From: Trypanosoma brucei
Lineage: Eukaryota
Length of the DNA stretch: 64,000 nucleotides
Reading direction: 5' to 3'
Assembly (NCBI GenBank): GCA_000002445.1
Contig: CM000207.1
Coordinates: 2,176,001 to 2,240,000 of the forward strand
This document shows, in pieces, positions 843 to 64,000 of the stretch (its first letter is position 1; every line of letters starts with the position of its first letter). The position numbers were made by a program, and so were the translations under genes. The notes under the pieces were generated by a model. It ran no database searches and was not told the origin of the DNA. It saw only the letters and a list, made by a program, of their open reading frames with translations.

Positions 843-3101
843 CTATAGAAGCCTCATCAGCTTCTCACGAATGGGTGCCGCTTTGACGTTGTAGCTGGCT
901 AGATTTCCCGAGTGAGCCGCGAACATAAGCTCCAACGCGCTACTAAGCCGTGGGAGGAGTGTCCGTGGCCGCAGAGAACGAGGAAGGTTGATTGCAATGC
1001 TAGCCGCACGATCCAGCACGGAAAGAATCACCTCCGGATGCATGCGAACCGAAGCTGCACACTGAAGAACTCTGTCAGCTGCACGAAGTAAGTGCTGCAC
1101 GACCCCAACAGGTAAACTGGCGGAGGATCCGCCGCCTCGTTGTGCGCTAGCACAGGCTTTGCGATACTCAAATAGGGCCGCACATGCGCACAGGACATTC
1201 AGCATGCGTAGGTTTTGACTCGCATCGACAGAAATAAATGAGCTGCTCAACGCTTGACCCACACGTTGCACCTCGTCTGACAACAGGGCGTTGGGAGTGC
1301 GCAGGATCTCCTCAAAATGTACCTGAACGGATTTAGACTGTTGGCTCTCCAACGCAAGCCACACAGCGGACGCAGTGTCGCCACACGTCATCTTTTCACG
1401 GATCAACTTTCTGTTAAGTACGTCAACGGCCTTGTGCCTGTAGAAATCAACGGCGCTAATCCACCTGCTTACGGTAGCACTCGCCGGATATTTGTCGTGC
1501 AGCAGTCGACGGAGAGCAACCTGAAAAGGACTGTTATCCTCCCACGATGTCTGGATAAACGTTTGGAGGGACAAAGACGTGTACCGATCACGCACCGCGT
1601 TCGATGTCTGGCCAATCACGGTGCGGTAGAGCTCAGCAGGATTCATGAAGGGTGAGTACACTGTGTAAGTAGCTGCCGTACGCCACAGAAGTGGATGCCA
1701 CCTGAAGAGTTCAACGTAGTCCCTAATGAGCTCATTTCGGGTGAAGGTGACAGAAATTTGATCCACAGGTGCGCCCATGGGAGGTGCACAGATGTCGGCC
1801 ACGTGTGCTGCCATGAAAAGTAAAGAAAAGCCACGAAGACTTTTGCCTCCCATGGGCAACTCAACCGCATCTCCCAACAGATGGTCATCTCCACTGTCAG
1901 TGATGCTAACATCCTCCCCATAAACACCCGACACATCCTCACTGCCATCACCAACATCTTCACCTAGACTAGCAATGCTCGAAACTGGGCTAGAAACAAA
2001 GTTGCTATCACCATCCTGGCCCTTCAGTCTTCCGGTGGCCGGAACCGACTGAATATGCTCATTTCGACGCACTGCATCGCGTACAAACTGCATAACACCA
2101 ACTACATCAGCCACGCACCGGCAGCCAAGTAGCTGTTCCACGACGGCGACGTACCACGGTCCCTTCACCGTACCTTCCCATGAATCCCAAGCCGTGCGGA
2201 ACAAGTGATGCATCTGTTGCAACGTCATGGGCGGCCCACAAACCACGCAAACAGCGGCTACGTAATCCACCACATCAAGATTAAGCAGGCAACACATATG
2301 CAACACCAGCGCTGCATCCCCACTAACCATGAGAAGGAGATCTAGGCAAAGGGACTTCAACTGCTGCGCCACCTGCATTGCGACGCCACCCTTCCTGTTC
2401 GCATTCCCTAAGATACGCTTACAGTCAACAAGTAACCGGTTCGCGGTGTCTGCCCAGGCAGCGTGCACTACACCGCTAGCTGGTGGGTGGAGCAACAAGT
2501 GAATGACATCCGCCAGCGCGCTCTCCTCCTCTGCACTGAATATATCCAAACTGAAAGTGCGCAAGTATTCCATAAATGTGCTGAGGAGTTGCGCACTGAT
2601 TGGAAACAACCCTGCCAGAAAGCAGCGCTGCATAGCGACCATGCATGGTCCAACGATCTCCATGAGGACGCCCTCTTTTCCAGGTGTTGACGAGCTGAGC
2701 TCGTTAAGAATCTGTTCCACACCTTCAGGGTGCACGAACCTGGAACGATACCAATCCACGTACAACCCATTCACCACGAGGCCGTCGTCGCCACACCCTT
2801 CGAGGACGCCAAGCACGATAGAGACAAGCTCCCACACAACCCCAACCGTCAGATCAAAAGGCACCTCGTCACTAACCGCCTTGAGCCGCAAAAAGAAGAG
2901 GTCCGACCACTGGCAAAGAGTTTCCGGGGTCGCAGCAGCAGAAGTTTGTTCTCCCCAAAGCGCCTTCATCTCACGGGGTTGACCATCGGGCAATTCCACG
3001 TACGAGGCAAAGCGATGTCGTTGCAAATGGACGAAAGCGTCAAAACCAGACCGTACCGCCGTGATAAATGAGGGGGGCAGACCGGATGCCGTGCACCTCA
3101 T
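843..3101 (-). CDS. Conserved hypothetical protein (752 aa), no recognisable domain
   Basis: Long uninterrupted minus-strand ORF in a co-directional gene run. Globular composition. No motif I can name. Confidence 0.5.
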   Translation of the reverse strand: MRCTASGLPPSFITAVRSGFDAFVHLQRHRFASYVELPDGQPREMKALWGEQTSAAATPETLCQWSDLFFLRLKAVSDEVPFDLTVGVVWELVSIVLGVLEGCGDDGLVVNGLYVDWYRSRFVHPEGVEQILNELSSSTPGKEGVLMEIVGPCMVAMQRCFLAGLFPISAQLLSTFMEYLRTFSLDIFSAEEESALADVIHLLLHPPASGVVHAAWADTANRLLVDCKRILGNANRKGGVAMQVAQQLKSLCLDLLLMVSGDAALVLHMCCLLNLDVVDYVAAVCVVCGPPMTLQQMHHLFRTAWDSWEGTVKGPWYVAVVEQLLGCRCVADVVGVMQFVRDAVRRNEHIQSVPATGRLKGQDGDSNFVSSPVSSIASLGEDVGDGSEDVSGVYGEDVSITDSGDDHLLGDAVELPMGGKSLRGFSLLFMAAHVADICAPPMGAPVDQISVTFTRNELIRDYVELFRWHPLLWRTAATYTVYSPFMNPAELYRTVIGQTSNAVRDRYTSLSLQTFIQTSWEDNSPFQVALRRLLHDKYPASATVSRWISAVDFYRHKAVDVLNRKLIREKMTCGDTASAVWLALESQQSKSVQVHFEEILRTPNALLSDEVQRVGQALSSSFISVDASQNLRMLNVLCACAALFEYRKACASAQRGGGSSASLPVGVVQHLLRAADRVLQCAASVRMHPEVILSVLDRAASIAINLPRSLRPRTLLPRLSSALELMFAAHSGNLASYNVKAAPIREKLMRLL

Positions 3102-3535
3102 TCTACACTCCTCCCAACTTGCTTACAGTTGCAAATGTGGTCGCGCGCAAACCTAACTGCTCACACTGTCTCTGTGTTGACGGAAAATGAAATCGTACGA
3201 GAAGGAAGTAGCACTGTCTCTCTTCAGACTGCGCACTCAACGATATAACGGGACAAAGGGAGGAATGTACATCATAAACAAGCACTCACGTTCGTTTAAT
3301 CCCCGTTCAAAGCGCAGGCTACACATCAAAAGCAGAGCAGCAGCTCCACATATACGTATATATACACGTGGTCGGGTCGTATCATGGGGAAGAGTGGTTC
3401 GGCAAAGAACAGCACCACTCGATGCAGAAGTCCATCGAGTAACAACTGGTACGCACACACAAAAACAAACAAACCTAGAACTCTCAGACTGCTTTTCCGC
3501 AAACCGCAGTGGAAAAACAACAACAACAACAACAA

Positions 3536-7048: not shown

Positions 7049-10000
7049 CTAGCAACTCTCAGTGACACGCGTATTTACCTCCCGCTTAATGCGTTCCAAG
7101 TGACCCAGTATCTCGATCTTCCAGTTGCTGCTACTCTGCACAGCACAGTTTACCCCCGTCATGTCACTACTGCAGCCAAAAGCGTCCTCCTCACTTCCTA
7201 CACTTCCACTGCCTACACATTCGGGCGCGGCCACCAGACGCTGCTGCACAACTTTCCACCGGTCGGAATCCTCACGATGCCATTCAACGACACTCGCCGA
7301 CACCTCTCGAACAAGTGCCATTGCTGCATCATCACTATAAACATTGGTGGTTGCCTCACGCATTACACATGGATATGCTGATGCGCCTTCGGCAACAACA
7401 GGGGCTCTGGAAAGCGTTGTGTCCATCCGCAGGCAAACGTTGTCAACGAATCTGGCGTATTCTTCACCCACGATGGAATGCAACGCGTGTATATTACTTT
7501 TGTCAACTTTGTTAAGGTGCCAAATCATCAAAAGTAACACCCCGACTTCGACTGTATCTCCTCTAGTAACGGCGTTGCCGAGGTGAAAAAGAAGAATTCG
7601 TATCGTTCTCGGCCTATTCTCGTTGGCCTCCAACACCTGCCTAAGCGCCACGGGTTTCAACTTGCCAAAAGCTTCCGTTGTTGTCAGGAGCATGTAACTC
7701 AGATGATCACGCGTCTCGAAGAGGCGGCTGTATTCCCTCATGCGCATGCGAACCCACGAATCGTTTCTAACGGCTATGGCATTAATGCAGTTCACAATGC
7801 TCAACACCAATGGAACGGGAGGTGGGGAAAGGATATCCTCGATGCTCCGAAAGAGGAGGTCGAGATTCTGTACGATGTTCATTGCTTCTGCACGGTTGCT
7901 AAACCCGTGGTGATTCAACGCAAAGTGTGAAGCAATATCTTCGAGGATAATCCTCCTGAAAATAGTCGGATGTCTCCCCCGAACGATATCGCGCACAACA
8001 CCGGCGCTGGAGTTGCAACCAAGGTCCCGTATGGCAAGACGGGTGGCCGCGCGGCGAATACGCTTCTCGATACCGGCGAATATCCGTGGCCTCTGGGATG
8101 CCAAAAGGCCTTCGCCGGTGTAGCTGCTTCGTGAAGTCGGACTCGCCATCACGTGCTGTATCGAGTCCCACAGTAACGTCAACCACGGGAAGGTCAACAG
8201 CATTTCGCTGCTCTTGGGACAACCCACAATTTTCTCAATGTAGGTTAGCACCCGAAGGGCAACTACGGCCGGTGACTCACGCTCTCCGCAGACTGAGGAG
8301 GAGGAAGGGATACCGGTGAACGAACTCCCACGCTGGACATTACCCTGCCCAGAAACAGCGAACGTGAACTCCCCCGTAACGACCGCCGCGTCCAGTATGT
8401 CCTCACAGGATTCTTCCATGTGGTTATTCATGTTCTGAAGCAGACACTCGAGGAGGCGAAGAAGTGGGTAGATCACCTGGGGTTCCCGAAGTACACCCTC
8501 ACTGTATGCCCGGACACGGGACAACTCATGAACCTCGCACAGTTGATACTGACTACAGTCGCCTCCAGAACCCTCACAGAATGATCCAAAGCCGTACTCC
8601 CGCCGCGCCATGCGCAACGGCTGATGAATCAGGCAGGGCAAATAACCTTGCGAGCCAACCACATGCAACCGTTTTTCGGTTGTTGATACACCAGCAACTT
8701 CATGAGGTAAATTGTCTCGTCGACTCCCCAAGGACGCAGTCCGTATTTGTCTTGCCCTTTCAAGGCCGCCGCTTGCTGCGGGTAGGAATGCTCCAAATGC
8801 CATTTGAAACAAGCAGTTGAATGTGGCCATACCAATGGGAACACATGCGGCTTCAGGGCCGGCCATCACAGCGGCAAGTACCTCATACCCCCGGCTATTA
8901 ATGAATTTTTTGTGGGAATCCTCCCTGCTGTGAAGAATCAGAGACAGAATGCGAAGCGCTAACACCCGAATAACCTCACTACCATGACTCTTCCCCCCAG
9001 CCAACAATATCAGGAAGGAGGCGCCAGTGTTGTCAAAAGCACTCTCAATCAAGTCACATACAGTGGTGTCAGTGCGCGCGATGTCAAACAACATATGAAG
9101 CACAACCGCCTTTACACGTTCATGCGTTTTGCTAACGGCCTCAATCAACAGAAATTTCAACACTTGTTCAATCTCCCGCGGTTCCTTGCACAACCTTTCC
9201 ACAAGAACGATCAGATTCCCCACACATTCTAGAGGAAGAGACACGCTCATATTCAGTAAGCGCTCAAAACGACCGGGGACCAACCGGAATATTGCAACAT
9301 TCTCTGGGAAGAGGAGTGTATCACTAAGTTCGCGCAACAAGCACGATGCATCGTGTGGTCCAAGCCCCCCTCTATCAACGAGATCGAGCATCAGAGAGAG
9401 AATGCTTTGCGTGGTATCATGGTTGCGCATTATCTTTCCACCGCGCGGGATGGTACAGGATATCAGGAGCGCGGGTACATCAACTGGCATATGACGCCAG
9501 GAGAGCAATGCCCCTCGTAGCCGCTCAATAACACCCCCATCTATGATCCGGTCGATGCCCCCGTCTATCGTGGATAACTTCATTGTCGTGCAGAGGAAGC
9601 GCACGCATAGCCTGGCAACTACGGGAAAACTCTCCGCAGCTGCCCCGGCCCCCGCCACGGTCCGAACCGCCCAACCTGCCACATCATGGTGCGCGAAGAT
9701 TTCACCCATATTTGGTGGCAAAAACGTAGTCAAATTTGACACAGACAAGTTCTGGGGTCGCTGCCTGATCTCATCAACAACCTTGATAATGGGAACATCC
9801 TCCCCGAAGGAAACTCCGCACAGCACGTTCAACGGAAGGTAACACGACGCCGCCGCTTCAGACAGAGACTTTGGGCCCAAATCGTACAATTTCATGACCT
9901 CCTCCATCGTTAGCGCACGGTCCAACAGCTCCATGCTCGCGGCAAAACCGAAGAATGAAGGGACACCAAGAACTCCACCAAGAGAAATTTTCACCACCTT

Positions 10001-12175
10001 CTCCTTTGAAACGGCCTCATAGGTGTCATGGGGAAAGCGCACCTCCACCCGACATCCGTTGACGCACACCGTAAAACCTGCGGGATGCTGCGTGAAGACA
10101 ACATGGGACCATGTATCAGCCTGAAATGAGACACCAGGTACCTTAACGTTCGTTACCTCTTCGAAAATACGGAACCGAACCACTAAACCACACAACCGGC
10201 CGTTGGCCACGATTACCAGGGTCACTGACACGCCACATTGCGCATATTCACAGCAAAATAGGGGGCTCCCCTCACGCCACACGCACTTCGGGTGCAACCA
10301 CGAGACACAAGTGTAGGTTGAAAAGAGGCTGCCAAAACGGTCCCAATCAAGACTGCACCTTATGCAACTGGCGCCAGAAAAGTACAGCGCACCCCGAGGA
10401 AACGAAGTGCAGCCGAGTACGTGCAGAAACGACTCTACGATGTTAACATCAGCCGCTAACACGCGTTGCGAACACATTTTCCCCACCCCATCCATGAGCC
10501 TCTTCATCACTCTCTCATTTGCATGGAGTGATGTGAGTAGGTTCAGCAGAGCTACAGAGGCTTCAATTGACCGAGCACTCAACGGATGGATCGTGCACGA
10601 CAAGACACTCGGAGACTCCGCACAGGAAAAAACACTCTCCTCATTGCTTGCAATGCATGCCAAGAGAGCGTCAATAACGGGGCCCTCTGCAAGCACCTTG
10701 GCGTTCTGGGGTGCGGCCGTGCAGAGCAACGCAAGTGTGAAAATCACATATCGATAGATGCAATCTGTAATATCTCCTCCTGAGTTCACACAAAGTAGGG
10801 CTTCGGCAACGAGTGAACAGCCATCCCCTGTGAGTACGCAGTCAAACAGCAACGAAGCCAACTGCCAAACACCCGATGACTCGCCCGTCATCAGCGTCTC
10901 CCAAAATGAGGGAAACGATTCAACAGCCCTGCCGGTGGGTCTAACAACCGCCAAATAACTCATGGAAGGAGCCAGAGATGAAAACGTCGCAGCCAGTGAG
11001 GAAGTCTTTGGGTATATCACACTGTCGGCAATGGTACCGTGACATTTAAGGCTTCCAAAGAAAGTCTCCCTGCTGCGGGAGAAACTGTTGGTTGCTGCGA
11101 CCTCGACTAGAACGTCCACGAGCACAAAAACCCACGTTTCCTCACTTCCAATGATAGGACCGGCGGAGCCTCCTGGGTTACTCGTTGGCATTTCCATCTC
11201 AAGACGAAGGTTGTGCAGACTCGATGCTGTTCTGACCCACGCCGCCATGAATTTCTCACGATGTCGACTGCGACACATCGCCTTGCTCTCCGCGCAGCTG
11301 CGTAGTACAACCTTCAGCAGATCGAAATAAGCCAGGCATCCCGTTAACCGTATCCCACGAATATCCTGTTCCCCAGTGGCATCTCCAGCGAGAGCTGAAC
11401 ATGTGCAAATAAGGTCGGACAGGAAGGCATCTCCGTCGCGTTGAAAGAGGGAGACCTCTTCTTGCCTCGCGCCGTATTCACCGCGGGAAATGGCAGCAGC
11501 GAGAACTGAAACCAAATGCACTTGCTGGGGCACAACCGAAAATACTCTTCCTTCCTCACTACACTTCAGCAGAAGCGAACGGGAAGCGGAAACGCCTTCC
11601 CCCAATAGTGCCGCGTTGTATCCCATAACGTCCGCCAACGCTGTGGAGAAGGCCTGCCGCATCTTCTTGCTCAATGGAACGTGAACAAAGAACTTCATCA
11701 TATGCGTTACGATGCCACGCTGAGAAAACACCTTCGCGGCACCTTCACCAATCCTCTGAAGAAGCTCTGACAGCAGTCTGGCGCATCCTATCAATGCCGA
11801 CTCACCAACATCCCTCTGCTTGTCGCCACGTGTACCAGGAGCAGATGGGGTTGACAAAATGTAAGGCGCGTCACCTTGGCGGTGTGCAGGGTGAGAACCG
11901 TTTCCACCATATTCTGCATGCTCAGCGGTCGTTCCACTACAACAGTTAAGCTGCGAAACAAGTTCTTCACTGAAACTTGTCACCCACAAGTCAACCGTAC
12001 GCAGGTCTATGGACGCTTGCCTCCGAAAACAGTCCTCAAGCGTTTCTAAGGTCGAAAAAAGTATTTTTTGTTGAGATTGCGCCCCAAGCTGAGGAAATGA
12101 CATGGCTCGCCGCACTCCGCTGACGGCCTGCCGTGCTAAAAAGAGCAGATCCTCTTTGCTCAGTGACCTCATCAT
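7049..12175 (-). CDS. Large conserved hypothetical protein (1708 aa) with helical repeat-like regions. An internal segment resembles a ConA/LamG-like beta-sandwich.
   Basis: 5.1-kb uninterrupted ORF on the same strand as its neighbours. The internal stretch ...VTLVIVANGRLCGLVV...VFTQHPAGFTVCVNG... is beta-rich, the rest is helical. Confidence 0.55.
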   Translation of the reverse strand: MMRSLSKEDLLFLARQAVSGVRRAMSFPQLGAQSQQKILFSTLETLEDCFRRQASIDLRTVDLWVTSFSEELVSQLNCCSGTTAEHAEYGGNGSHPAHRQGDAPYILSTPSAPGTRGDKQRDVGESALIGCARLLSELLQRIGEGAAKVFSQRGIVTHMMKFFVHVPLSKKMRQAFSTALADVMGYNAALLGEGVSASRSLLLKCSEEGRVFSVVPQQVHLVSVLAAAISRGEYGARQEEVSLFQRDGDAFLSDLICTCSALAGDATGEQDIRGIRLTGCLAYFDLLKVVLRSCAESKAMCRSRHREKFMAAWVRTASSLHNLRLEMEMPTSNPGGSAGPIIGSEETWVFVLVDVLVEVAATNSFSRSRETFFGSLKCHGTIADSVIYPKTSSLAATFSSLAPSMSYLAVVRPTGRAVESFPSFWETLMTGESSGVWQLASLLFDCVLTGDGCSLVAEALLCVNSGGDITDCIYRYVIFTLALLCTAAPQNAKVLAEGPVIDALLACIASNEESVFSCAESPSVLSCTIHPLSARSIEASVALLNLLTSLHANERVMKRLMDGVGKMCSQRVLAADVNIVESFLHVLGCTSFPRGALYFSGASCIRCSLDWDRFGSLFSTYTCVSWLHPKCVWREGSPLFCCEYAQCGVSVTLVIVANGRLCGLVVRFRIFEEVTNVKVPGVSFQADTWSHVVFTQHPAGFTVCVNGCRVEVRFPHDTYEAVSKEKVVKISLGGVLGVPSFFGFAASMELLDRALTMEEVMKLYDLGPKSLSEAAASCYLPLNVLCGVSFGEDVPIIKVVDEIRQRPQNLSVSNLTTFLPPNMGEIFAHHDVAGWAVRTVAGAGAAAESFPVVARLCVRFLCTTMKLSTIDGGIDRIIDGGVIERLRGALLSWRHMPVDVPALLISCTIPRGGKIMRNHDTTQSILSLMLDLVDRGGLGPHDASCLLRELSDTLLFPENVAIFRLVPGRFERLLNMSVSLPLECVGNLIVLVERLCKEPREIEQVLKFLLIEAVSKTHERVKAVVLHMLFDIARTDTTVCDLIESAFDNTGASFLILLAGGKSHGSEVIRVLALRILSLILHSREDSHKKFINSRGYEVLAAVMAGPEAACVPIGMATFNCLFQMAFGAFLPAASGGLERARQIRTASLGSRRDNLPHEVAGVSTTEKRLHVVGSQGYLPCLIHQPLRMARREYGFGSFCEGSGGDCSQYQLCEVHELSRVRAYSEGVLREPQVIYPLLRLLECLLQNMNNHMEESCEDILDAAVVTGEFTFAVSGQGNVQRGSSFTGIPSSSSVCGERESPAVVALRVLTYIEKIVGCPKSSEMLLTFPWLTLLWDSIQHVMASPTSRSSYTGEGLLASQRPRIFAGIEKRIRRAATRLAIRDLGCNSSAGVVRDIVRGRHPTIFRRIILEDIASHFALNHHGFSNRAEAMNIVQNLDLLFRSIEDILSPPPVPLVLSIVNCINAIAVRNDSWVRMRMREYSRLFETRDHLSYMLLTTTEAFGKLKPVALRQVLEANENRPRTIRILLFHLGNAVTRGDTVEVGVLLLMIWHLNKVDKSNIHALHSIVGEEYARFVDNVCLRMDTTLSRAPVVAEGASAYPCVMREATTNVYSDDAAMALVREVSASVVEWHREDSDRWKVVQQRLVAAPECVGSGSVGSEEDAFGCSSDMTGVNCAVQSSSNWKIEILGHLERIKREVNTRVTESC

Positions 12176-54565: not shown

Positions 54566-55181
54566 CGTTTTATATCTCCTTTTAATACTTTTTGACGTAA
54601 AATGAGACACCTTTCCCTTAACTCGATGAGGGGAAGCTTATTGCGAAAGAGGAAGAAAACTTTGAGACTCTAATAACACAGAAAAGTCAACACTTAATGA
54701 GTATCTGAGGGACGAGTAATAGTCGAAAAAAGATTTTTTTGCTTTGCTTTATTCACATGATTCCCCCCTCAAAAAAAAATAATACCTTATTCAGGGACTT
54801 GGTACTTGCTTGCAATTTAATTTAAGTATTTTGTTTGTTCTTAGCGACTTATCCCGTAAGGGAAGACGCTACTTCAAGTTGGGTGCTCCACACGAATTCC
54901 GAAACGCTAACACAGTGTCGGCAAACTGCGGCAGTTTGTGCATTTCGTTGGAAGAGAGGAAATTCGTCAAAGTTTTAACACCTTGATTGTGCGCGTGAAA
55001 GAGTCGTTGCGAGGGGGAAAATACGGTATCCCCACACACACACCAAAAAACAGTAAGGAAAAAAAAAAAAGAAACATCCCATAAAACATTCTTTTTCTCT
55101 TTCTTACAACTCAAAGTAGACACAGAGCATTTGTCAAAGACATATTCAAACAAGCTAGCATACGATTTCTGCTCTGGAGGG
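54566..55181 (+). repeat. Direct repeat copy 1 (about 615 bp) flanking the oxygenase gene
   Basis: About 98% identical to 57124-57735. Both copies end at CTCTGGAGGG and contain an A-run and CACACACACACC. Confidence 0.85.
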
Positions 55182-55515: not shown

Positions 55516-56499
55516 ATGTATTCTGCTACGCCGTTCATGACACCGCGTGCTTCGTTGCCGGTAATCGATGTCTCGCCATTGTTTGGGGGCGCGGAGCAGG
55601 AGATCATGAAGGTTGCCAAGCAGTTGGATCACGCGTGCCGCACTTCAGGATTCCTCTATGTCGTTGGTCACCCTATTAAACAAGAGCAGATCGATAGGGT
55701 ATTGCAAATTTCGAAAACTTTCTTTTCCCTTCCAATGGAAGAGAAGATGAAAATTGATGTCAAGAAGGGTTTCCTAAAATACAGAGGATATGTCCCCTTC
55801 GGAGCTGAGGAACCAGAGCATGCCAAAACCTACTCATATGAGGCGTTCAACATGGGATATCACCTGCCCCTACACCATCCTGAAGTCATGGCACGGGCCC
55901 CCCTACGCGGACCAAATGTGCACCCCACACAAGTTCCGGAGTGGGTAGACATCATGGAAACCTATTTCCGCGATATGTGGGCATTCATGCTCGTTCTACT
56001 TCGTGCCATGGCGCGAGGTATTGGAATACGTGAAGATTTCTTCGACGACAAGTTCAGCGTACCACAATGTGAGCTAACTGTCAAGCATTATCCCGAACCA
56101 AAAACACACGCGAATGGTAACACTCTGCGGATGGAGCACTCTGATTACGGGATTATCACTATTCTCTACCAAGATTCCACGGGAGGATTGCAGGTCCGTA
56201 ATCCTGACGACAAACTCGTTGATGTTCCACCCATTGAAGGAAGCTTTGTCGTCAACATTGGGGATATGATGGAGATGTGGACTAATGGGCGGTATCGTTC
56301 AACCAAGCACTGCGTTGTGTCCAGAGGAAAGGAACGGTACTCCATACCTTTCTTCTGTAACCCGAATCCGAACGCTTTGGTTAAATGTCTCGACAATTGC
56401 TACTCGGACACTAATCCACCGAAATACCCACCAGTCAAAGCTTCTGACTGGTTGCTGAAAAGATTGGCGGATCTCTATTCTTACAAATCGAAAATGTAA
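55516..56499 (+). CDS. 2-oxoglutarate/Fe(II)-dependent oxygenase of the iron/ascorbate oxidoreductase (isopenicillin-N-synthase-like) family, 327 aa
   Basis: Facial triad HSDYG (H-x-D) ... RYRSTKHCVV (distal His). RYSIPFF (2OG-binding RxS). N-terminal DIOX_N-like region. Length is typical of IPNS-like dioxygenases. Confidence 0.8.
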   Translation: MYSATPFMTPRASLPVIDVSPLFGGAEQEIMKVAKQLDHACRTSGFLYVVGHPIKQEQIDRVLQISKTFFSLPMEEKMKIDVKKGFLKYRGYVPFGAEEPEHAKTYSYEAFNMGYHLPLHHPEVMARAPLRGPNVHPTQVPEWVDIMETYFRDMWAFMLVLLRAMARGIGIREDFFDDKFSVPQCELTVKHYPEPKTHANGNTLRMEHSDYGIITILYQDSTGGLQVRNPDDKLVDVPPIEGSFVVNIGDMMEMWTNGRYRSTKHCVVSRGKERYSIPFFCNPNPNALVKCLDNCYSDTNPPKYPPVKASDWLLKRLADLYSYKSKM

Positions 56500-57123
56500 G
56501 TACACCAGAGCCAAAATGACTGCCCTGTTAGTGGTGGGGCGTCCGCTCTTTATCTTGTCTCATGGCTGGAGAGAAGGAACCACCATTATATACCTGCCGC
56601 CCTCCCTCTTCACTTCCGGCATTTGCATCATCAGCACGACGCGATTGGACAACGCCGAAACCCCTGTAAAAACTAGGTTGACTCGAACCCGCTACGCTTC
56701 CGAGGCTCGACAGGGAAATGGTGGAAATCAAGAGCCCCCGCGAAACCGAAGACCTAGCTGGTGTTGGCCTGTTCAAGAAAGTCGGTTTGAGGGTGCTGAT
56801 AAAGAAAATATAATGAAACTACTGCCAAAAAACTGGGTGAAGCATAGCGGATGACAGTAATCGAAATAGAAAATTTTCTTGGCTAAAGATGGGCGTTGAA
56901 GAATATGCCACATGCCAGGAAAAATAACAATCTGAAGGGTGAATTATCCAATATTGTGTAACATCCCTGGAAATGGTCACGAAAAAAGCCAAATGAATAT
57001 GTGGTTATATTTTAATAAAACCCACGGTTTCAGAAAACACAGATAAGAACCGAATGTAGTAAAACAAAGATACTCCAAAATAGGGAAACAAGAGGAAAAA
57101 CAATCAAATAATCCATTTGTCTG

Positions 57124-57735
57124 TTTTTATATCTCCTTTTAATACTTTTGACGTAAAATGAGACACCTTTCCCTTAACTCGATGAGGGGAAGCTTATTGC
57201 GAAAGAGGAAGAAAACTTTGAAACTCTAATAACACAGAAAAGTCAACACTTAATGAGTATCTGAGGGACGAGTAATAGTCGAAAAAAGATTTTTTTGCTT
57301 TGCTTTATTCACATGATTCCCCCCTCAAAAAAAATAATACCTTATTCAGGGACTTGGTACTTGCTTGCAATTTAATTTAAGTATTTTGTTTGTTCTTAGC
57401 GACTTATCCCGTAAGGGAAGACGCTACTTCAAGTTGGGTGCTCCACACGAATTCCGAAACGCTAACACAGTGTCGGCAAACTGCGGCAGTTTGTGCATTT
57501 CATTGGAAGAGAGGAAATTCGTCAAAGTTTTAACACCTTGATTGTGCGCGTGAAAGAGTCGTTGCGAGGGGGAAAATACGGTATCCCCACACACACACAC
57601 CAAAAAACAGTAAGGAAAAAAAAAGAAACATCCCATAAAACATTCTTTTTCTCTTTCTTACAACTCAAAGTAGACACAGAATATTTGTCAAAGACATATT
57701 CAAACAAGCTAGCATACGATTTCTGCTCTGGAGGG
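57124..57735 (+). repeat. Direct repeat copy 2 (about 612 bp)
   Basis: Near-identical to 54566-55181. Spacing of 2,558 bp suggests a remnant tandem gene-unit duplication. Confidence 0.85.
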
Positions 57736-60249
57736 ATTGTTACAGTTGTGCGGCGAAGGAGGGACGACGCCGTAGACTGAACTGTTGGCGGAAATGCACC
57801 GTTGGATTATTTGGGGTTGAAGAGGGCTCTACCGAAGTGTGACGGAGGAAAAAAGCTCACTCTGTTTCACACAGTTGTCGGGGAGCGTGCCCTGACGACG
57901 TCACACGGCGGGGGCAGAGACGGCGAAGGAATTTGCTGCTGCTTACTCATGGAAGGTGTGGCATGCATATGCTCGATAAGGGAGCTGTGCGAATAGCGGT
58001 AGGTCACAGCGCCTGCAGTTACAATTCGGGAGATTCCACAATACTTCTGCGTGGGCCGAACTGAAGATATTTTCTGACGACGCCGGTCACAAACGTGGCG
58101 TCACAGTTCCGCGCCGGTGGTGTGTGTGGGGCGCTGCGAACCAGCATATGGTTTAGTATATGAAACTGGATGGGCGGACAGCCGTCGAGCACCGGGGGGA
58201 AGGGGGGAGGGCGCTGCAGATTCATTAGTTCTCGAGTCGGCGAGTATCCATGTGCCCCGTTGTTGTCGACGGTGAAAGGTACCGCCAAAAGGAAAGAATG
58301 GTAATGTTTGAGGATTTGTAAGCTGAGGTTTGCACTTTGCATTTCAGGCACTGCAGTGGTACTCGCGGGTTGATATGTCGCGGCATTCATCCACTATGCC
58401 AGGAGGAAGCGATACGGAGGCTAGACAGCTCCGTTTCTTATTCGGGTGTTTTTCCTCTGATATTAATATTGATTCATGTGTGCTACAGTACCCGGAATCC
58501 TTGGGTCAGGAATCTGCAGCGTTTCAGTATCCCCTGTTGGTATAGATTCAGACGCTTCAGTCCATTACATTCCATTCCACCTCAGTAACTAAATGCAAAC
58601 TTCATCCTGGTACACACTTTCTCCCCTGTACTTGTGTGAGAAGCGCCCATAGCTTATTTGGTTGTTGGTCTGCTACGGTGAGATGGGTCTACTTCCGATG
58701 CCATGAAGGGAAACAGTGAGTCGGTGATTATCAAGAGTGTAGTCGATAAAGTTGCATACGCTGGGAGAGCATACAGTGTCATTTCCACATTAATTTCTAG
58801 TGCCATGGATTCTGTTGCCACTGCGTACTAATGGGGCTGCACGTGCCTACTCGACGACTATCAGTTTATTATTTTTGCATATTGTCGTAACGGCCCCATA
58901 TTTTCCTAACAATAGAAATCTCTTGGTCCATCATCCGTGGTACATGCGTGGGGTCATAAATTTGGTGAATGTCAGTGTCTGCATCTTTCGCGCATACAGT
59001 GGCTCCTAAATCCGCTCCACGGTCGGTATTCCACAGTGAGTGTATTAACGCGCTACCGCCTGCACAGTTGCAGGCTGTCCGGCGTCGGTAGCGGCTGCCA
59101 ACGCTGAGATATTCTACTTGCGCAATTGTTACTCTAGCCCAAACGTGGGCGCAGGGTATCACAATCACAGATGCGAGTGCTTCACAGAGCGGACCAGTGG
59201 TCTTTTCCTGTGGAACGTGGTTAAACTCCATTGATAACCCAGTGTTAGAACTTTTATGGGGCTCTTTACATGAGGGGACAGAAGTGTTTTTTTTTTTGTG
59301 CGGCCGATCATGGTACTATGCGTTCCTGAAAATCGGAAAATGCATAACGGTGTGTCGGAAAGACGCAACTATTCCCCGTGGAATATGGTATCCTTGGCGG
59401 AAAGCCCAAAACGGTTTTCTTCCAGAAATCGCTGCTGCTTGATGATACCCCCTTAACATTAGAGAATATGGAAATCATATGAAGATGTTCTTCTGATCGA
59501 CGTGGTGAGGTTGTGAAAGAGCGGTAAAACTTGTGTGGAAGTCTCAAAGCGAACGTGAATGCAGCAAAAGAAGTGGTGCGATTCACCACTCTTAGCCTTT
59601 GTGCAGGATGACGCATATCTTCCTGCTTCCTAGCTGTGCAACTCATGGAAGTGCTTTCCTCAGTGTGGAAGCTTATATACCTCTTGTGACAAGTCATAAA
59701 AAAAATTTAAAGTGAATCCTCAACAACAATTAAGAAAAAATAAAGCATTTATTTACACGGAGTGATTTGAAGACCAGTATCATGCACACTGTGTGTCGTC
59801 GAGGGTAAATAACCAATTTAAAAGATTCGCGCCGCGTTCGGTTTCCTCGTAACATTTATCACCCCCCAGCACGTAATGACATTTCTCAGGAACGGGGCTC
59901 ATTACGTCCCTTCCAGCTTTATAAGCAACTACGTTTCATTACCGATAACATTATCCCAAGGGGAGAGCCACCAACAATAAGAGCTTATCCACACAAAAAG
60001 TGAACAAAGATTACCTACGCAACACCGCGTCCCATGGGCTGTTAACAAGCCCTGTTCTCTACCACCATCATGCACAAAGGGCATCATTCACTATCATCCC
60101 TAACTTACCTAGGGTAGGAGCGCTCCTTCGGTATTCCTCCGCCCACCTCGATACAGCGTAAATTCACTACCCCCTCAAACCAAACTTCTGCAACAACACA
60201 CTCTACATTTCTCCTACAACCTCATGATTAGATTCATGCCTTTGCATGT

Positions 60250-60261
60250 TAAAAAAAAAAA
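60250..60261 (+). other. A12 tract, probable 3' poly(A) of a retroposed or retroelement-derived insertion abutting the SL gene fragment
   Basis: aaaaaaaaaaaa immediately followed by SL exon nucleotides 15-39. Confidence 0.5.
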
Positions 60262-60306
60262 TTAGAACAGTTTCTGTACTATATTGGTATGAGAAGCTCC
60301 CAGTAG
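60262..60306 (+). pseudogene. SL RNA: Spliced-leader (SL) RNA gene fragment: mini-exon nt 15-39 plus the first 20 nt of the SL intron. Truncated at both ends.
   Basis: TTAGAACAGTTTCTGTACTATATTG|GTATGAGAAGCTCCCAGTAG matches the T. brucei SL 3' portion and splice-donor/intron start exactly. The first 14 nt (AACTAACGCTATTA) are replaced by poly(A). Similarity stops after intron nt 20. Confidence 0.7.
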
Positions 60307-60688
60307 GAATTATCCGTACTTGGGGTCAATATTCGGGAAGAGGAAGAAGTAAGAAATCGCTGCATTTATGATATCGATAGGAAAGGAAGGAAAACCTCAA
60401 AACCAAAAAAAGTCTTGTTTTGGGGGTTCGAACCCGGACCTCCAAAACACAAACACAATTAGAAGAGGAGTGTTGCCAGTTGGGCTATTTCGACAAATCG
60501 GAGGAAAAATTGAAAATTTATGCCCAGATGAAATATACCAAATCGTACACATCGAAGAGAAAAAACATAGGTGTACAAACGGTGCACACGTAGAAAAAAG
60601 TAGCGGAATTGATAAATCTCAGGTAAATAAGCCCATTACAGAAATCAGGTGATCAGTTTCTTTCTTGGGACAGAATATCGGGAGGTTT

Positions 60689-63600
60689 GATGTCAAAAAG
60701 TCACCCGAAAATGAATATTTGGAAAAAATCAACTGTGGTCAAATCGACATAACGACCACAAAAAATTGTCGCTACGAAGACTTCCGTAGCGCATTTGAAA
60801 GGGCTCGACCAGCCCAATGCATGAGTAACAACGGTTACTGCAACAAAGAGGTCGCCAAAAAATTAGGTGCAGTCGAACCTAATATTTTTTCAAAAAATGG
60901 AAATTTTGAAAAAATTAACCGTGGTCAAATCGACATGACGACCACAAAAAATTGTCGCTACGAAGACTTCCGTAGCGCATTTGAAAGGGCTCGACCAGCC
61001 CAATGCATGAGTAACAACGGTTACTGCAACAAAGAGGTCATAAGAAAAATAGGGGCGGTTGGAAAAGAAAAATGCTCAAAAAATAAGGAAAAAGAGCAAA
61101 TTTCGCAGGCCGACAAAAATGATACACATGGTTTCTACGCAGACTTCCGTAGCGCATTTACACGGAATGGACGAGTAGAATTAGGCAATAACAACGGTTA
61201 TTGTCATAACGAAGCGACAAGAAATATAGAGAGGGGGAAAAAGCCGAAAACATCAAAAATTGATGAAAAAAGGCAAATTTCCAACATTGCAGCTGGTCGA
61301 AAAAGTGATCACTACGAAGATCCGAGTAGTGCATTTTCACGAATTTCAATAGACCATTGCAATGCTCAAATAAAAATTGGTCGCAAAAAAATGGTTAGAA
61401 ACTTGAGGTCATCTGAATCTCAAAAAATTTCAAGGTTCCCAAGGCACCATGGGGAAGGAAAAAAGGTGTCTCCTCCGGCTTTGAACCTGCAGTGGCCAGG
61501 ACAGAAGCAGGTAGCGTCGGCAGTTGCGCCACAAATTAGAAAAATCGCGACACCGAAAAACAACAACACAAGCATCCAACGGAACTGTAGGAAACACCTT
61601 AGGAAAGAAGGTGATTGGTGGATAGTAGAGGGCGGGCAAAGCCACAAGAAAGCCGCCCATACCCCTCTCAAAACGAAACCGGTAAATAAGGAGGGGAACC
61701 GGAAGAAGTACGGCAGACCACCGCGTGAGGTAGAAGGGAAATGGCTTACCTCCCTCATTGCGGCAACGACTGAGGCCGTATTACGCCAACTGGGGAAAGG
61801 AAAATCCCCAACAGCCCACACGAAGTCGAACCAGAGTAGAGTCCCGCTGCAGCACTCTGAGAAAACGGCTAAGGGCATCAAACACGCGACGCCCCAACCA
61901 AAAAAGAAAGAACATGAGCAGCGGAAAGAGCTCCCCCGTCGGCCCCCAACCAAGAGGAGCCACGGCGCTAACAAAGGGCAGGGAGCACCAGTAAGAGCCC
62001 CTACGAAGACACAAGGGAAGGGGGAAGAACAACCCCACACAATGCGAACATGGGCACAGGTGGCAGCACCGAGGAAACCAAAGGTGACAAGTAAACCACC
62101 CATGGCTCAAAAAAAGGCACAGGGGGAAAAGAAAGGGGCAGCGGCCAACCCCTTCCACTGGGAGCTACAGGTGGAGCAGCTTCTCAAGGATGCGGAACAG
62201 ATACGCGAAAGCATGTACATCCGCTTTCTCCACGTTCGGCAGAGTTGGTGGAGCACATGCTTCAAGGCCCACATGGAGTTCCACTGCCCAGTGTGTGGTT
62301 TCGCGCACCCGGAAGAAACCATAACAGTAACACACTGCAGGCAGCAACACCCCCAGGAGGGCCGCCTGATTCCCTACACCCTGACAACAACAGGGAATCA
62401 GGTGCAGTTCGCAGGTCCCTCCTGCTCACTTTCGGCGGTGGTGGCTATCCTCTCACATATGGAGGAAGAGAAAAATTTCCACCCTATTATCCGCCGAAGC
62501 TACCAGTCCCCGAGCAAGGAGACTACCCAAACGCTCGTTCAGGCATTGGGACTGGAGCTCCCCACAGCCCCCATCACTGCGATAGAAGCGCTGGCCCACC
62601 ATGACCAGATGATCCGCCAGCTGTTGGAGGCACCCGCAACGACGGCACGACAATGCGGGCATTGTGGGGTAAGTGAGCTAATGGAAGGGCCTTCCAACCC
62701 CGGGGAAAATTTGGGGATAATCTCCATAAACCCCAACACATGCGAGTCGATCGAGCTGACGAATCAGATCCTCGCGAAGACATATACGACCTCCTGGACA
62801 GATATGGAGGTCGTATGCACGGGGGAACGGAAGAATATGGCCCACCGGCCTACCCCGACGTTGATCACCCACTCCAAGACGTTCGGGGAAATGGTGGTCA
62901 TCGATATTGGAACGTGGGGGAACGAAGCGGTGGGTTTGAAACGCATCCTCCACGAGATCCTGTTACCCCACGGGAACGGCACGGCAACATACAAACTCGT
63001 GGGCGCCGTGATCGCACCAACACCGTTCCACGTGGTAGCGGCAATACCTCAACAGACCAGGAAACGTCGCTGGGATATCCTGGATGGTATGGTCCGCCGC
63101 ACCGTGAGCCAGAGCACTGTCGACCCAAAAACTGTGGTCATGTGCGTGTACCGTCGTGAAGAAGAAGAAACATACGACGTACTAGACGAGGAGGAGCAAG
63201 ACGACGACCTCCTCGGTATCCCCAACCCCACGCCACGGCGATTGATGATATCACAAGCCGGTCCACAGCAAAACTCATGGGTGGACACACGGGGCAGGAG
63301 GGCATACGGCTCACAGGAGGAACAGGATGAGAGGACATCGACAGATCAGGTGAGTATTTTCTCCCACGACGAAACACGGGAGTTATCATCACCACTGGAG
63401 TGTCCTATCGTAGGATGCACCGCGAGTTTCGTGGGCCCACGCAGATGGGAGAAGGCCAAATCCCATATATACGGGTTCCACTCGCTGGAAGAGGTCCGCG
63501 AAATCCCGAGGGGGGAGCTTATATGTAAGGGGATAGTAAGATGCGAGACTTGTGCCACGCTCCTCCCTACGTCGGACAGAGCGAAACAGGCACACGCCGA

Positions 63601-64000
63601 CGATTGCAGACCCTATCTCCCGCGGAAAGAAAACATCCGCCGAAAACGGGCCGCTGAAAGAGAAGCGACAGAGGCGAGCGCACAGCAAGGAATAGCGCTA
63701 CGCCTCGAGCGGCAGGGCCCGTACATAACTCCCCGCGACATAGAGGAGCCCACCAACACGACGACGGAAAGTTGGTGGAGGGAGAAGGTAGCTACGAAAC
63801 GCTACCTTCACAGAAAGGAGTGGCCGCAGTGGCTTGACATCTGCCGCACGGTCCTCCTCGGATACTCCGCGTCATCACAAGGCGAGCGGCACCAACGCCA
63901 AGTGATGCTCCTTGATCTGGTCCGGAATCATCTCCACACGCGCACAGCCAGGCGCGAGCAACAGCAGCAACGTGGAAAGGATAACCAGGAAGAGGAGGAC
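60689..64000 (+). CDS. Partial (3' end beyond window) long ORF. N-terminal tandem repeats of about 57 aa, a K/R/P-rich basic linker, and a C-terminal region with C2H2-like Cys/His motifs. Candidate retroelement (SLACS/CRE-clade-like) or novel zinc-finger protein.
   Basis: I walked frame 2 by hand from a stop at 60650-60652 to the window end (64000) without meeting a stop, giving at least 1,116 codons. The ORF track does not list it because it has no terminating stop inside the window. Motifs: FHCPVCGFAHPEETITVTHCRQQH, ECPIVGCTASFVGPRRWEKAKSHIYGFH, ICKGIVRCETCATLLPTSDRAKQAHADDC. The coding strand is strongly purine-rich and T-poor. Confidence 0.45.
60721..61380 (+). repeat. Tandem repeat array with a unit of about 172 bp: two near-perfect copies and two degenerate partial copies
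   Basis: GTGGTCAAATCGACAT(A/G)ACGACCACAAAAAATTGTCGCTACGAAGACTTCCGTAGCGCATTTGAAAGGGCTCGACCAGCCCAATGCATGAGTAACAACGGTTACTGCAACAAAGAGGTC occurs at 60737 and 60909. Diverged copies at about 61130 and 61304. Confidence 0.85.

Follow-up and report, generated by a model that had tools for sequence, protein, structure and literature searches.

Does the tandem-repeat array near the right-hand end of a 64,000-nucleotide stretch of Trypanosoma brucei DNA (GenBank assembly GCA_000002445.1, contig CM000207.1, forward-strand positions 2,176,001 to 2,240,000; hereafter the window, in whose own coordinates positions are given) encode protein, or is it an untranslated repeat? The array belongs to SLACS, a spliced-leader (SL)-gene-specific retrotransposon of the T. 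brucei group that lacks long terminal repeats (non-LTR), and an earlier note, made from the sequence alone, took it for a series of cysteine-containing protein modules. We find that the array is stop-free far beyond chance and in phase with the downstream open reading frame (ORF), that it does not behave as a conserved cysteine-containing protein domain, and that its younger units share an invariant palindromic core, which suggests an additional function at the RNA or DNA level. On balance we favor, if only by a little, the reading that the array can be translated as an N-terminal extension, under weak constraint, of a single long SLACS ORF, with a further constraint at the nucleotide level. 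Neither the element nor its repeat is new; the present contribution lies in the corrected period of the repeat, its phase relationship as far 5' as the first AUG, the finding of a single ORF in this copy, the negative result on the ratio of non-synonymous to synonymous substitution (Ka/Ks or dN/dS) and the palindromic invariant core.

Repeat units and their period

Tandem Repeats Finder delimits a repeat at 60708-61084 with a period of 186, 2.0 copies and 88% matches; weaker self-similarity extends out to ~61281 in a self-BLAST comparison, and the offsets between shared k-mers in 60600-61500 are led by 186 (103 shared 9-mers), followed by 177 and 363. There are four occurrences of the core motif TACG(A/C)AGA...GCATTT (60773, 60959, 61136 and 61313), which share one codon phase and lie 186, 177 and 177 bp apart, i.e. 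62, 59 and 59 codons. These define four units on the forward strand: unit 1 (60722-60907; 186 bp, 62 codons) and unit 2 (60908-61084; 177 bp, 59 codons) are young, with tails of type a and type b, respectively, and unit 3 (61085-61261; 177 bp) and unit 4 (61262-61438; 177 bp) are decayed, the last third of unit 4 holding the ATG of the classical ORF1. The tandem repeat thus lies where the earlier note had placed it. The period of 172 bp that it gave and the indel-adjusted junction by which it had the second unit read in frame have to be given up: the spacings are all divisible by 3, so no frame-restoring junction is needed. Its count of two near-identical and two decayed units is right as to the number of units and the decay of units 3 and 4; units 1 and 2 are near-identical in their first 131 nt only (3 differences in 131) and are 88.1% identical overall, owing to divergent 3' tails. 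Identity to units 1 and 2 falls to 57-62% in unit 3 and to ~47% in unit 4; an alignment of the units that ignores codons needs gaps of only 3, 3 and 9 nt.

An open frame through the leader and the array

The frame of the array is open from 60653 to the window end, that is for 1116 codons. Over 60653-61402 it has no stop, against 7-21 in the other five frames, so that the units do share one open frame, as the earlier note had said, and do so more than chance would provide. The frame extends farther 5' than that note saw, to the first ATG of the element at 60368, which is 61 nt from the element 5' end and in phase with both the array and the main ORF. This ATG opens 94 codons (60368-60652, forward strand) that end at a TGA (60650-60652), and a pre-array open segment of 23 codons (60653-60721, same strand), comprising a pyrimidine tract (TTTCTTTCTT; ~60657-60672) and then AG, connects to unit 1. 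Between ATG 60368 and the classical ORF1 start at ATG 61391, this TGA is the only stop in 341 codons, whereas the other two frames have 16 and 28. The equivalent stretch of a T. equiperdum SLACS copy, eqB, has 1 stop in 403 codons, against 19 and 35 in the other frames, and the two stops fall at different codons, with eqB showing GGA for the TGA of the window and TAA for a TAC of the window. The Poisson probability of at most one stop is 2e-6 for the window and 1.3e-7 for eqB.

A first-order Markov model on the region's own composition, with a stop probability of 0.047 per codon, gives a probability of zero stops of 7.6e-6 for 246 codons, 1.5e-4 without the duplicate unit 1, and 1.2e-3 for units 3 and 4 with the pre-array segment. 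When unit 2 was mutated in simulations of neutral decay to the divergence of unit 3 or unit 4, it stayed stop-free in 6.4% and 4.2% of the runs, respectively. The base composition also differs between codon positions, both in the non-redundant array (p = 0.0023) and in units 3 and 4 (p = 0.0097); 11 upstream windows used as controls gave p = 0.2-0.86, and for the leader by itself the difference does not reach significance (p = 0.3). Given 1 stop in 341 codons and this periodicity, the array is neither outside a reading frame nor devoid of a coding signature, and we know of no non-coding mechanism that yields such a combination of stop depletion, phase and codon-position composition.

The frame in element nt 62-1085 encodes the peptides YEDFRSAFER and ARPAQCMSNNGYCNK. 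Altogether 18 AUGs precede 61391, whose own ATG stands in the best context of all (AAAATGG). An in-frame ATG is present in each young unit, at 60821 in unit 1 and at 61007 in unit 2, and another in-frame one occurs at 60935; the out-of-frame AUGs open just 3-29 codons. An exact look-up of the 94-aa leader ORF returned no record.

Identity of the element and its 5' junction

The element (60307-64000, forward strand) is the 5' 3.7 kb of a SLACS non-LTR retrotransposon of the CRE clade and continues past the window end; the window stops at element nt ~3694, short of the reverse transcriptase, and the 3' junction of this copy lies beyond it. Its DNA is 97-98% identical to that of three T. equiperdum SLACS copies, one of which (eqA) is preceded by a complete SL nt 1-60, which fixes the element 5' end at 60307. 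In the window a fragment of the SL RNA gene of T. brucei type (60261-60306, forward strand; ~nt 15-60), a target-site copy, adjoins the element at 60306/60307, in accord with the insertion into the SL exon (nt 11/12) with a duplicated SL flank that marks SLACS/CRE elements. The fragment matches CAGTTTCTGTACTATATTG and GTATGAGAAGCTCCCAGTAG exactly, reading TTAGAACAGTTTCTGTACTATATTG followed by GTATGAGAAGCTCCCAGTAG, and includes the SL 5' splice site, GGTATG, and a 5-codon upstream ORF (ATG 60289 to TAG 60304-60306), whose TAG ends on the last base before the element.

The proteins tell the same. A HMMER scan of 1.84 billion representative sequences gave 41 matches for the 1115-aa frame, whose names come from a later word search and cluster look-up: the 404-aa 'Retrotransposable element SLACS 45 kDa protein' of T. 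b. gambiense (P0002; 94% identity, E = 2.9e-198), a 'SLACS retrotransposable element (part)' of T. brucei equiperdum (P0001; 99% identity), and more remote homologs from T. congolense, T. vivax and T. cruzi. A word-index protein search with the whole 1115-aa frame returned no match, probably because of an excess of spurious word matches; a 417-aa query later recovered SLACS proteins. In the full-length copy C of the T. equiperdum contig described below (98% identical), the downstream 1027-aa frame contains RVT_1 (E = 1.6e-17) and, by eye, a CCHC/RHD/E/RPD endonuclease motif.

Directly 5' of the SL fragment stands a run of 11 A residues (A11; 60250-60260, forward strand), which has the look of a retroposon poly(A) junction, although what precedes it differs from the 3' end of SLACS. 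Copy C reads ...GGGGCAGTT, then A11, then SL from nt 12 (TTATTAGAACAG), against ...GCATGTT, then A11, then TTAGAACAG in the window. More fully, the A11 in the window is preceded by ...CCTTTGCATGTT, and in copy C by the SLACS 3' end, ...GGGGCAGTT. The DNA 5' of 60248 has no match in the T. equiperdum contig, so the order in the window is unique DNA, A11, SL nt 15-60 and SLACS, with SL nt 1-11 found nowhere. A similar junction precedes eqB: AT-rich non-SLACS sequence, then an A-run, then SL nt 12-60.

Self-BLAST detected no second SLACS copy within the window. No Rfam family was found over 56000-64000 at E <= 1 and, accordingly, no recognisable ribozyme like that of hepatitis delta virus at the element 5' end. 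A further observation concerns the leader, which holds an inverted repeat (60416-60449) with 15-nt arms flanking a perfect 12-nt palindrome, GGGTTCGAACCC (60424-60435), identical in eqA and eqB. It resembles a tRNA B-box, yet ARAGORN finds no tRNA; GGTTCGAACCC, in the leader, was considered as a T-arm and rejected, being a palindrome.

Related copies in other trypanosomes

The T. equiperdum contig QSBY01000017 (L001), which encodes P0001, comprises an SL RNA gene array with units ~1.36 kb apart and holds three SLACS 5' regions, eqA, eqB and eqC. With the SL fragment next to the window copy and these copies beside an SL array, the array's membership of an SL-gene retroelement is supported. The T. 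equiperdum arrays have 3+2, 3+2 and at least 4+2 units (young plus old; 5, 5 and at least 6 in total), against 2+2 in the window, so that a 5'-terminal array varies in copy number between copies. Their spacings are 186/186/(186)/177/177 in the same frame as in the window, and all units are open apart from the first one recovered from eqC, whose 5' end lies out of frame. The three arrays are thus in frame, and the possibility raised by the earlier note, that homologous repeats elsewhere would lie outside ORFs or in other frames, did not materialize. The region of units 3 and 4 has 1 variable site in 320 nt among the 4 copies.

In T. vivax a SLACS-like ORF (L003, 1162-4362) contains an in-ORF tandem repeat with a period of 108 nt (36 codons) at 2374-2681. 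An overlapping array in the same sequence has a period of 92 nt and 100% identity, and the gene model is open across both arrays. A Logan contig (L004) gave no SL match.

Two further observations were made in T. equiperdum. All three copies share a 1-nt deletion relative to the window ~145 nt after the ATG of MVRNL and show further frameshifts in the main ORF, which may mean either that all copies are defective or that the assembly has homopolymer errors. Secondly, two SLACS 5' halves lie tail-to-tail in the contig, at 7799-11140 (+) and 14592-11250 (-), as a 3.35-kb inverted repeat that is 99.1% identical with a spacer of ~110 nt. Its arms end at the window equivalents of 63525 and 63412, ~element nt 3100-3220; being unequal in length and differing in sequence, they argue against a palindrome artefact of assembly. 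Read-through of this inverted repeat from an SL promoter would give a long hairpin RNA of the 5' half only. The SLACS small interfering RNAs (siRNAs) of T. brucei are confined to the 5' half (PMC3447711).

The main ORF and the ORF1/ORF2 boundary

The main ORF, taken from the classical ORF1 ATG (MVRNLRSS...; 61391-64000, forward strand), is continuous past the classical ORF1/ORF2 boundary to the window end. That its start corresponds to the classical one follows from P0002, which aligns from query residue 247 (nt 61391), and this places the start inside unit 4; units 3 and 4 remain similar on both sides of it. The C2H2 zinc finger at ~62279-62359 has a weak Pfam match (E = 0.025), and CPVCGFAHPEETITVTHCRQQH and CPIVGCTASFVGPRRWEKAKSHIYGFH stand in frame with their motifs kept in homologs, giving the element the N-terminal C2H2 fingers characteristic of SLACS/CRE proteins.

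The published C-terminus of ORF1 (...HPGGPPDSLHP...HHCDRSAGPP), ~80 residues, corresponds to frames 1 and 3 of the window at 62350-62604. The window frame stays open there and matches proteins from T. congolense (P0003) and a Logan contig (P0004) residue for residue. ORF1 and ORF2 are thus one ORF in this copy and, with the frame both open and matched by homologs, the classical split looks like the product of frameshifts in the copy that was sequenced.

A palindromic, invariant core in the young units

Two palindromes capable of forming hairpins recur in the units. The first, H2 (60770-60791; CGCTACG-N8-CGTAGCG), translates as RYEDFRS and recurs at 60956-60977 in unit 2, with 5 bp in unit 3 and with 6 bp in unit 4, there with a double change from G:C to A:T. 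The second, H4 (60823-60838; AGTAAC-AACG-GTTACT), translates as SNNGYC and recurs in unit 2 and, as CAATAAC/GTTATTG (61186-61203) with a G:C to A:T double change, in unit 3, and is lost in unit 4. Each palindrome thus shows one compensatory change, made up in either case of one non-synonymous and one synonymous substitution, and the peptide motifs that appear conserved, DFRSAF and NNGYC, are the translations of H2 and H4.

The 3' arm of H2, the hairpins H3 and H4 and the in-frame ATG all lie within a 55-nt core on the forward strand (60785-60839 in unit 1, 60971-61025 in unit 2). This core is invariant in 12 of 12 young units from 4 copies, against 33 variable sites of 131 outside it (Fisher p = 3.4e-6); at third codon positions, 0 of 18 sites vary within the core against 13 of 44 outside (p = 0.013). 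On either strand the core of the young units forms four local hairpins; z is ~-3.7, and 0 of 200 shuffles were as stable. Over sliding windows the fold z averages ~-2.2 in the array (11 windows) against -1.3 in the main ORF, which is modestly lower, and in the old units the stems of this structure, derived as it is from unit 1 itself, are no better conserved than non-stems. These last two results weaken RNA structure as the sole explanation of the array. For a promoter or other nucleic-acid activity of the units, the invariant core, the palindromes and the fold z of -3.7 are indirect evidence.

Coding extension or untranslated repeat

In the reading that we favor, one long frame would start at the first AUG, 61 nt from the element 5' end, and run through a leader of ~280 nt, a variable number of units of 62 or 59 codons, the classical ORF1 and then ORF2. 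The product of the array would be an N-terminal extension of the SLACS polyprotein that varies in length, is under weak constraint and probably lacks structure; selection would act mainly on the openness of the frame in the master lineage and barely on the peptide sequence. As unit lengths and indels are multiples of 3 and each young unit has an in-frame AUG, initiation anywhere in the array would be productive, and the 55-nt palindromic core of the young units would have an added role as RNA or DNA. The sequences themselves show the identity of the element, the structure of the units, their phase, the depletion of stops, the varying copy number, the near-neutral substitution between units and the invariance of the core; that ribosomes translate the array, where they would start and what the core does is what we infer.

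Several observations weigh against this reading. The published description puts the region in the 5' untranslated region (UTR; PMC3447711). By the Nei-Gojobori method, dN/dS comes to 0.44 for unit 1 against unit 2, on 21 differences, and to 0.70-0.86 for every other pair of units, and the differences between units are spread evenly over codon positions (23/27/25, 20/26/22 and 31/32/30). The variable sites among the 12 young units are likewise distributed 8/12/13 by codon position. A separate codon-position test of copy against copy is uninformative, since the bona fide ORF is also without a third-position excess (6/10/8), as expected if inserted copies decay neutrally. Neither a HMMER scan of the 1.84 billion representatives nor a word search of 5.8 billion clustered sequences found a protein covering query residues 1-246; the homologs begin at the equivalents of query residues ~186-436, on both sides of the classical start, and none has a counterpart of the array. 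The AlphaFold single-sequence model, uninformative in itself, has a mean predicted local distance difference test score (pLDDT) of 37.5. The 5' 1.1 kb has a G+C content of 0.39 (0.37 at third codon positions) against 0.55-0.59 (0.60-0.66) in the main ORF, with a sharp switch near 61400. Every sampled copy has a lesion: the TGA at 60650 in the window, the TAA in eqA and eqB (eqA, like eqB, has GGA for the window TGA), a 1-nt deletion before unit 1 in eqA that puts its leader out of frame, and the out-of-frame first unit recovered from eqC. Finally, no tandem repeat is present at the one T. congolense locus analysed (L002), and stops abound in its frame upstream of the basic N-terminal region; this locus is degenerate, without repeats or SL match, and gives no ORF start for a relative.

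A more far-reaching version of the coding reading, to which we give somewhat less than an even chance, is that SLACS has one ORF and hardly any 5' UTR. The master copy would be translated from the first AUG, just after an SL-derived leader with its 5-codon upstream ORF, through the repeats into a fused ORF1-ORF2 polyprotein, and the textbook structure of two ORFs and a long UTR would stem from a defective or mis-sequenced copy. The array would then be doubly constrained: held open for translation, and with a palindromic core that acts as RNA or DNA within the siRNA-rich 5' half.

The most serious competitor of the coding extension, which we consider unlikely but well short of negligible, is a non-coding array of 5' UTR monomers that acts as nucleic acid, through protein-binding palindromes, RNA hairpins, an antisense promoter or as a source of double-stranded RNA and siRNA, with translation from ATG 61391 and the open frame as a relic or by-product. 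It agrees with the classical annotation, the composition break at ~61400, the near-neutral substitution between units and the differing unit numbers of the copies, and it would account for a 55-nt core that is invariant even at third codon positions, for the four hairpins with z ~-3.7 on either strand and for the two compensatory G:C to A:T changes. The AAAATGG context of ATG 61391, the best one, and the homolog N-termini near it fit as well, and related elements have 5' variable-number tandem repeats located 5' of the ORF (PMC12857005). What a non-coding array leaves unexplained is the single stop in 341-403 codons of the ORF frame (P ~1e-6), the multiples of 3 in lengths and indels, the codon-position periodicity and the first AUG being in phase. 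Moreover, any inherited openness should have gone from the decayed units, which are ~50% diverged, 18 AUGs precede 61391, and the fold z is only modestly below that of the main ORF (~-2.2 against -1.3), with the stems of old units not better conserved.

Very improbable, and already largely refuted by the pattern of substitution, is the proposal of the earlier note, a cysteine-containing protein module with a DFRSAF...NNGYC core, here taken to be folded (e.g. metal-binding or disulfide-bonded) and under protein selection. The open, in-phase frame would suit it, as would the recognisability of Y-x-D-x-x-S-A-F in all four units and of NNGYC in three, and a short [KR]-[KN]-[LI] stretch is kept between units with synonymous differences. 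The three cysteines that it assigned to each unit are in fact 4 in each of the two young units and 1 each in units 3 and 4, and the T. equiperdum units vary at two cysteine positions (C/R and C/S), so the cysteines are not conserved across units. The Ka/Ks check that it proposed, run between old and young units, gave the values of 0.70-0.86, which hold no signal of purifying selection on amino acids, being not well below 1 and accompanied by no third-position excess; there are neither homologous modules nor a confident fold in the searches and model above. In addition, its motifs coincide with palindromes whose compensatory changes pair non-synonymous with synonymous substitutions, and the core is invariant at third positions.

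Hardly credible, and already refuted, is the view that the frame is open by chance, or is an artefact of assembly, in A-rich DNA of low complexity: the A-rich and T-poor composition (A 0.39, T 0.21) does lower the stop frequency, but at this composition one would still expect 11.5 stops in 246 codons, with 12 and 20 in the other sense frames, and the same array occurs in the same frame in an independent assembly of another subspecies.

Relationship to known systems and implications

SLACS is a classical model for site-specific retrotransposition and one of the two main endogenous siRNA sources in T. brucei, the siRNAs coming from its 5' half. Aksoy and colleagues reportedly described it in 1987 and 1990 with '185-bp' tandem repeats at its 5' end, and a '49-bp duplication' is also associated with it. 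The window copy conforms to the described element in its SL-gene insertion site, in its proteins (T. b. gambiense 45 kDa ORF1 product, 94% identity; T. equiperdum fragment, 99%), and in having a repeat at the 5' end with the same unit size (186 bp here) and variable unit number. It departs from the description, which has two ORFs and a 5' UTR of ~1.1 kb, in that here there is one frame, with which the '5' UTR' is in phase while being, from the first AUG onward, almost devoid of stops.

Within the CRE clade, 'internal repeat regions (RPT)' have been described (PMC12278014). The T. vivax repeat belongs to the same clade and is likewise an in-ORF tandem repeat with a period divisible by 3 (108 nt), but it lies inside the called ORF rather than at the extreme 5' end, is GC-rich and is unrelated in sequence; the T. 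congolense locus differs in being without a repeat. We count the precedent for in-ORF tandem repeats in the clade, from T. vivax and the published description (PMC12278014), in favor of the coding reading. The fungal telomeric elements FoTeR and MoTeR have a related reverse transcriptase with a restriction-like endonuclease and 5' repeats that vary between copies, but their units are of 6-100 bp and are annotated as UTR 5' of the ORF, with no frame conservation reported (PMC12857005).

A comparison with mouse L1 cuts both ways. Like SLACS, it carries a 5'-terminal array of ~200 bp units in variable number, with the younger units on the 5' side, and has an in-frame tandem duplication in the N-terminal part of its first ORF. 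The L1 5' monomers are promoter repeats of ~200 bp, which are non-coding and drive transcription, and L1 ORF1 has an in-frame length-polymorphism region; unlike these non-coding, promoter-bearing monomers, the SLACS array is in phase with the ORF. SLACS transcription is said to depend on the host SL RNA promoter, as reported by Patrick et al. in 2008. It starts at +1 of the interrupted SL RNA gene (PMC3447711).

If the 5' 1.1 kb is coding, SLACS gene models should start ~1 kb farther upstream, with ORF1 merged with ORF2; the siRNA-producing region would be coding sequence and not UTR; and variation in unit number would translate into protein-length variants. The outcome is a refined annotation of a known element and not a new kind of system.

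Other features of the window

The remainder of the window is an ordinary trypanosome chromosome, with a strand-switch region and genes for leucine-rich-repeat proteins, a USP7-like protein, a MutL-like protein and a 2-oxoglutarate-Fe(II) (2OG-Fe(II)) oxygenase. A direct repeat of ~600 bp (54590-55181 and 57146-57735; 98-99% identical, 2555 bp apart) brackets the 2OG-Fe(II) oxygenase gene at 55516-56499.

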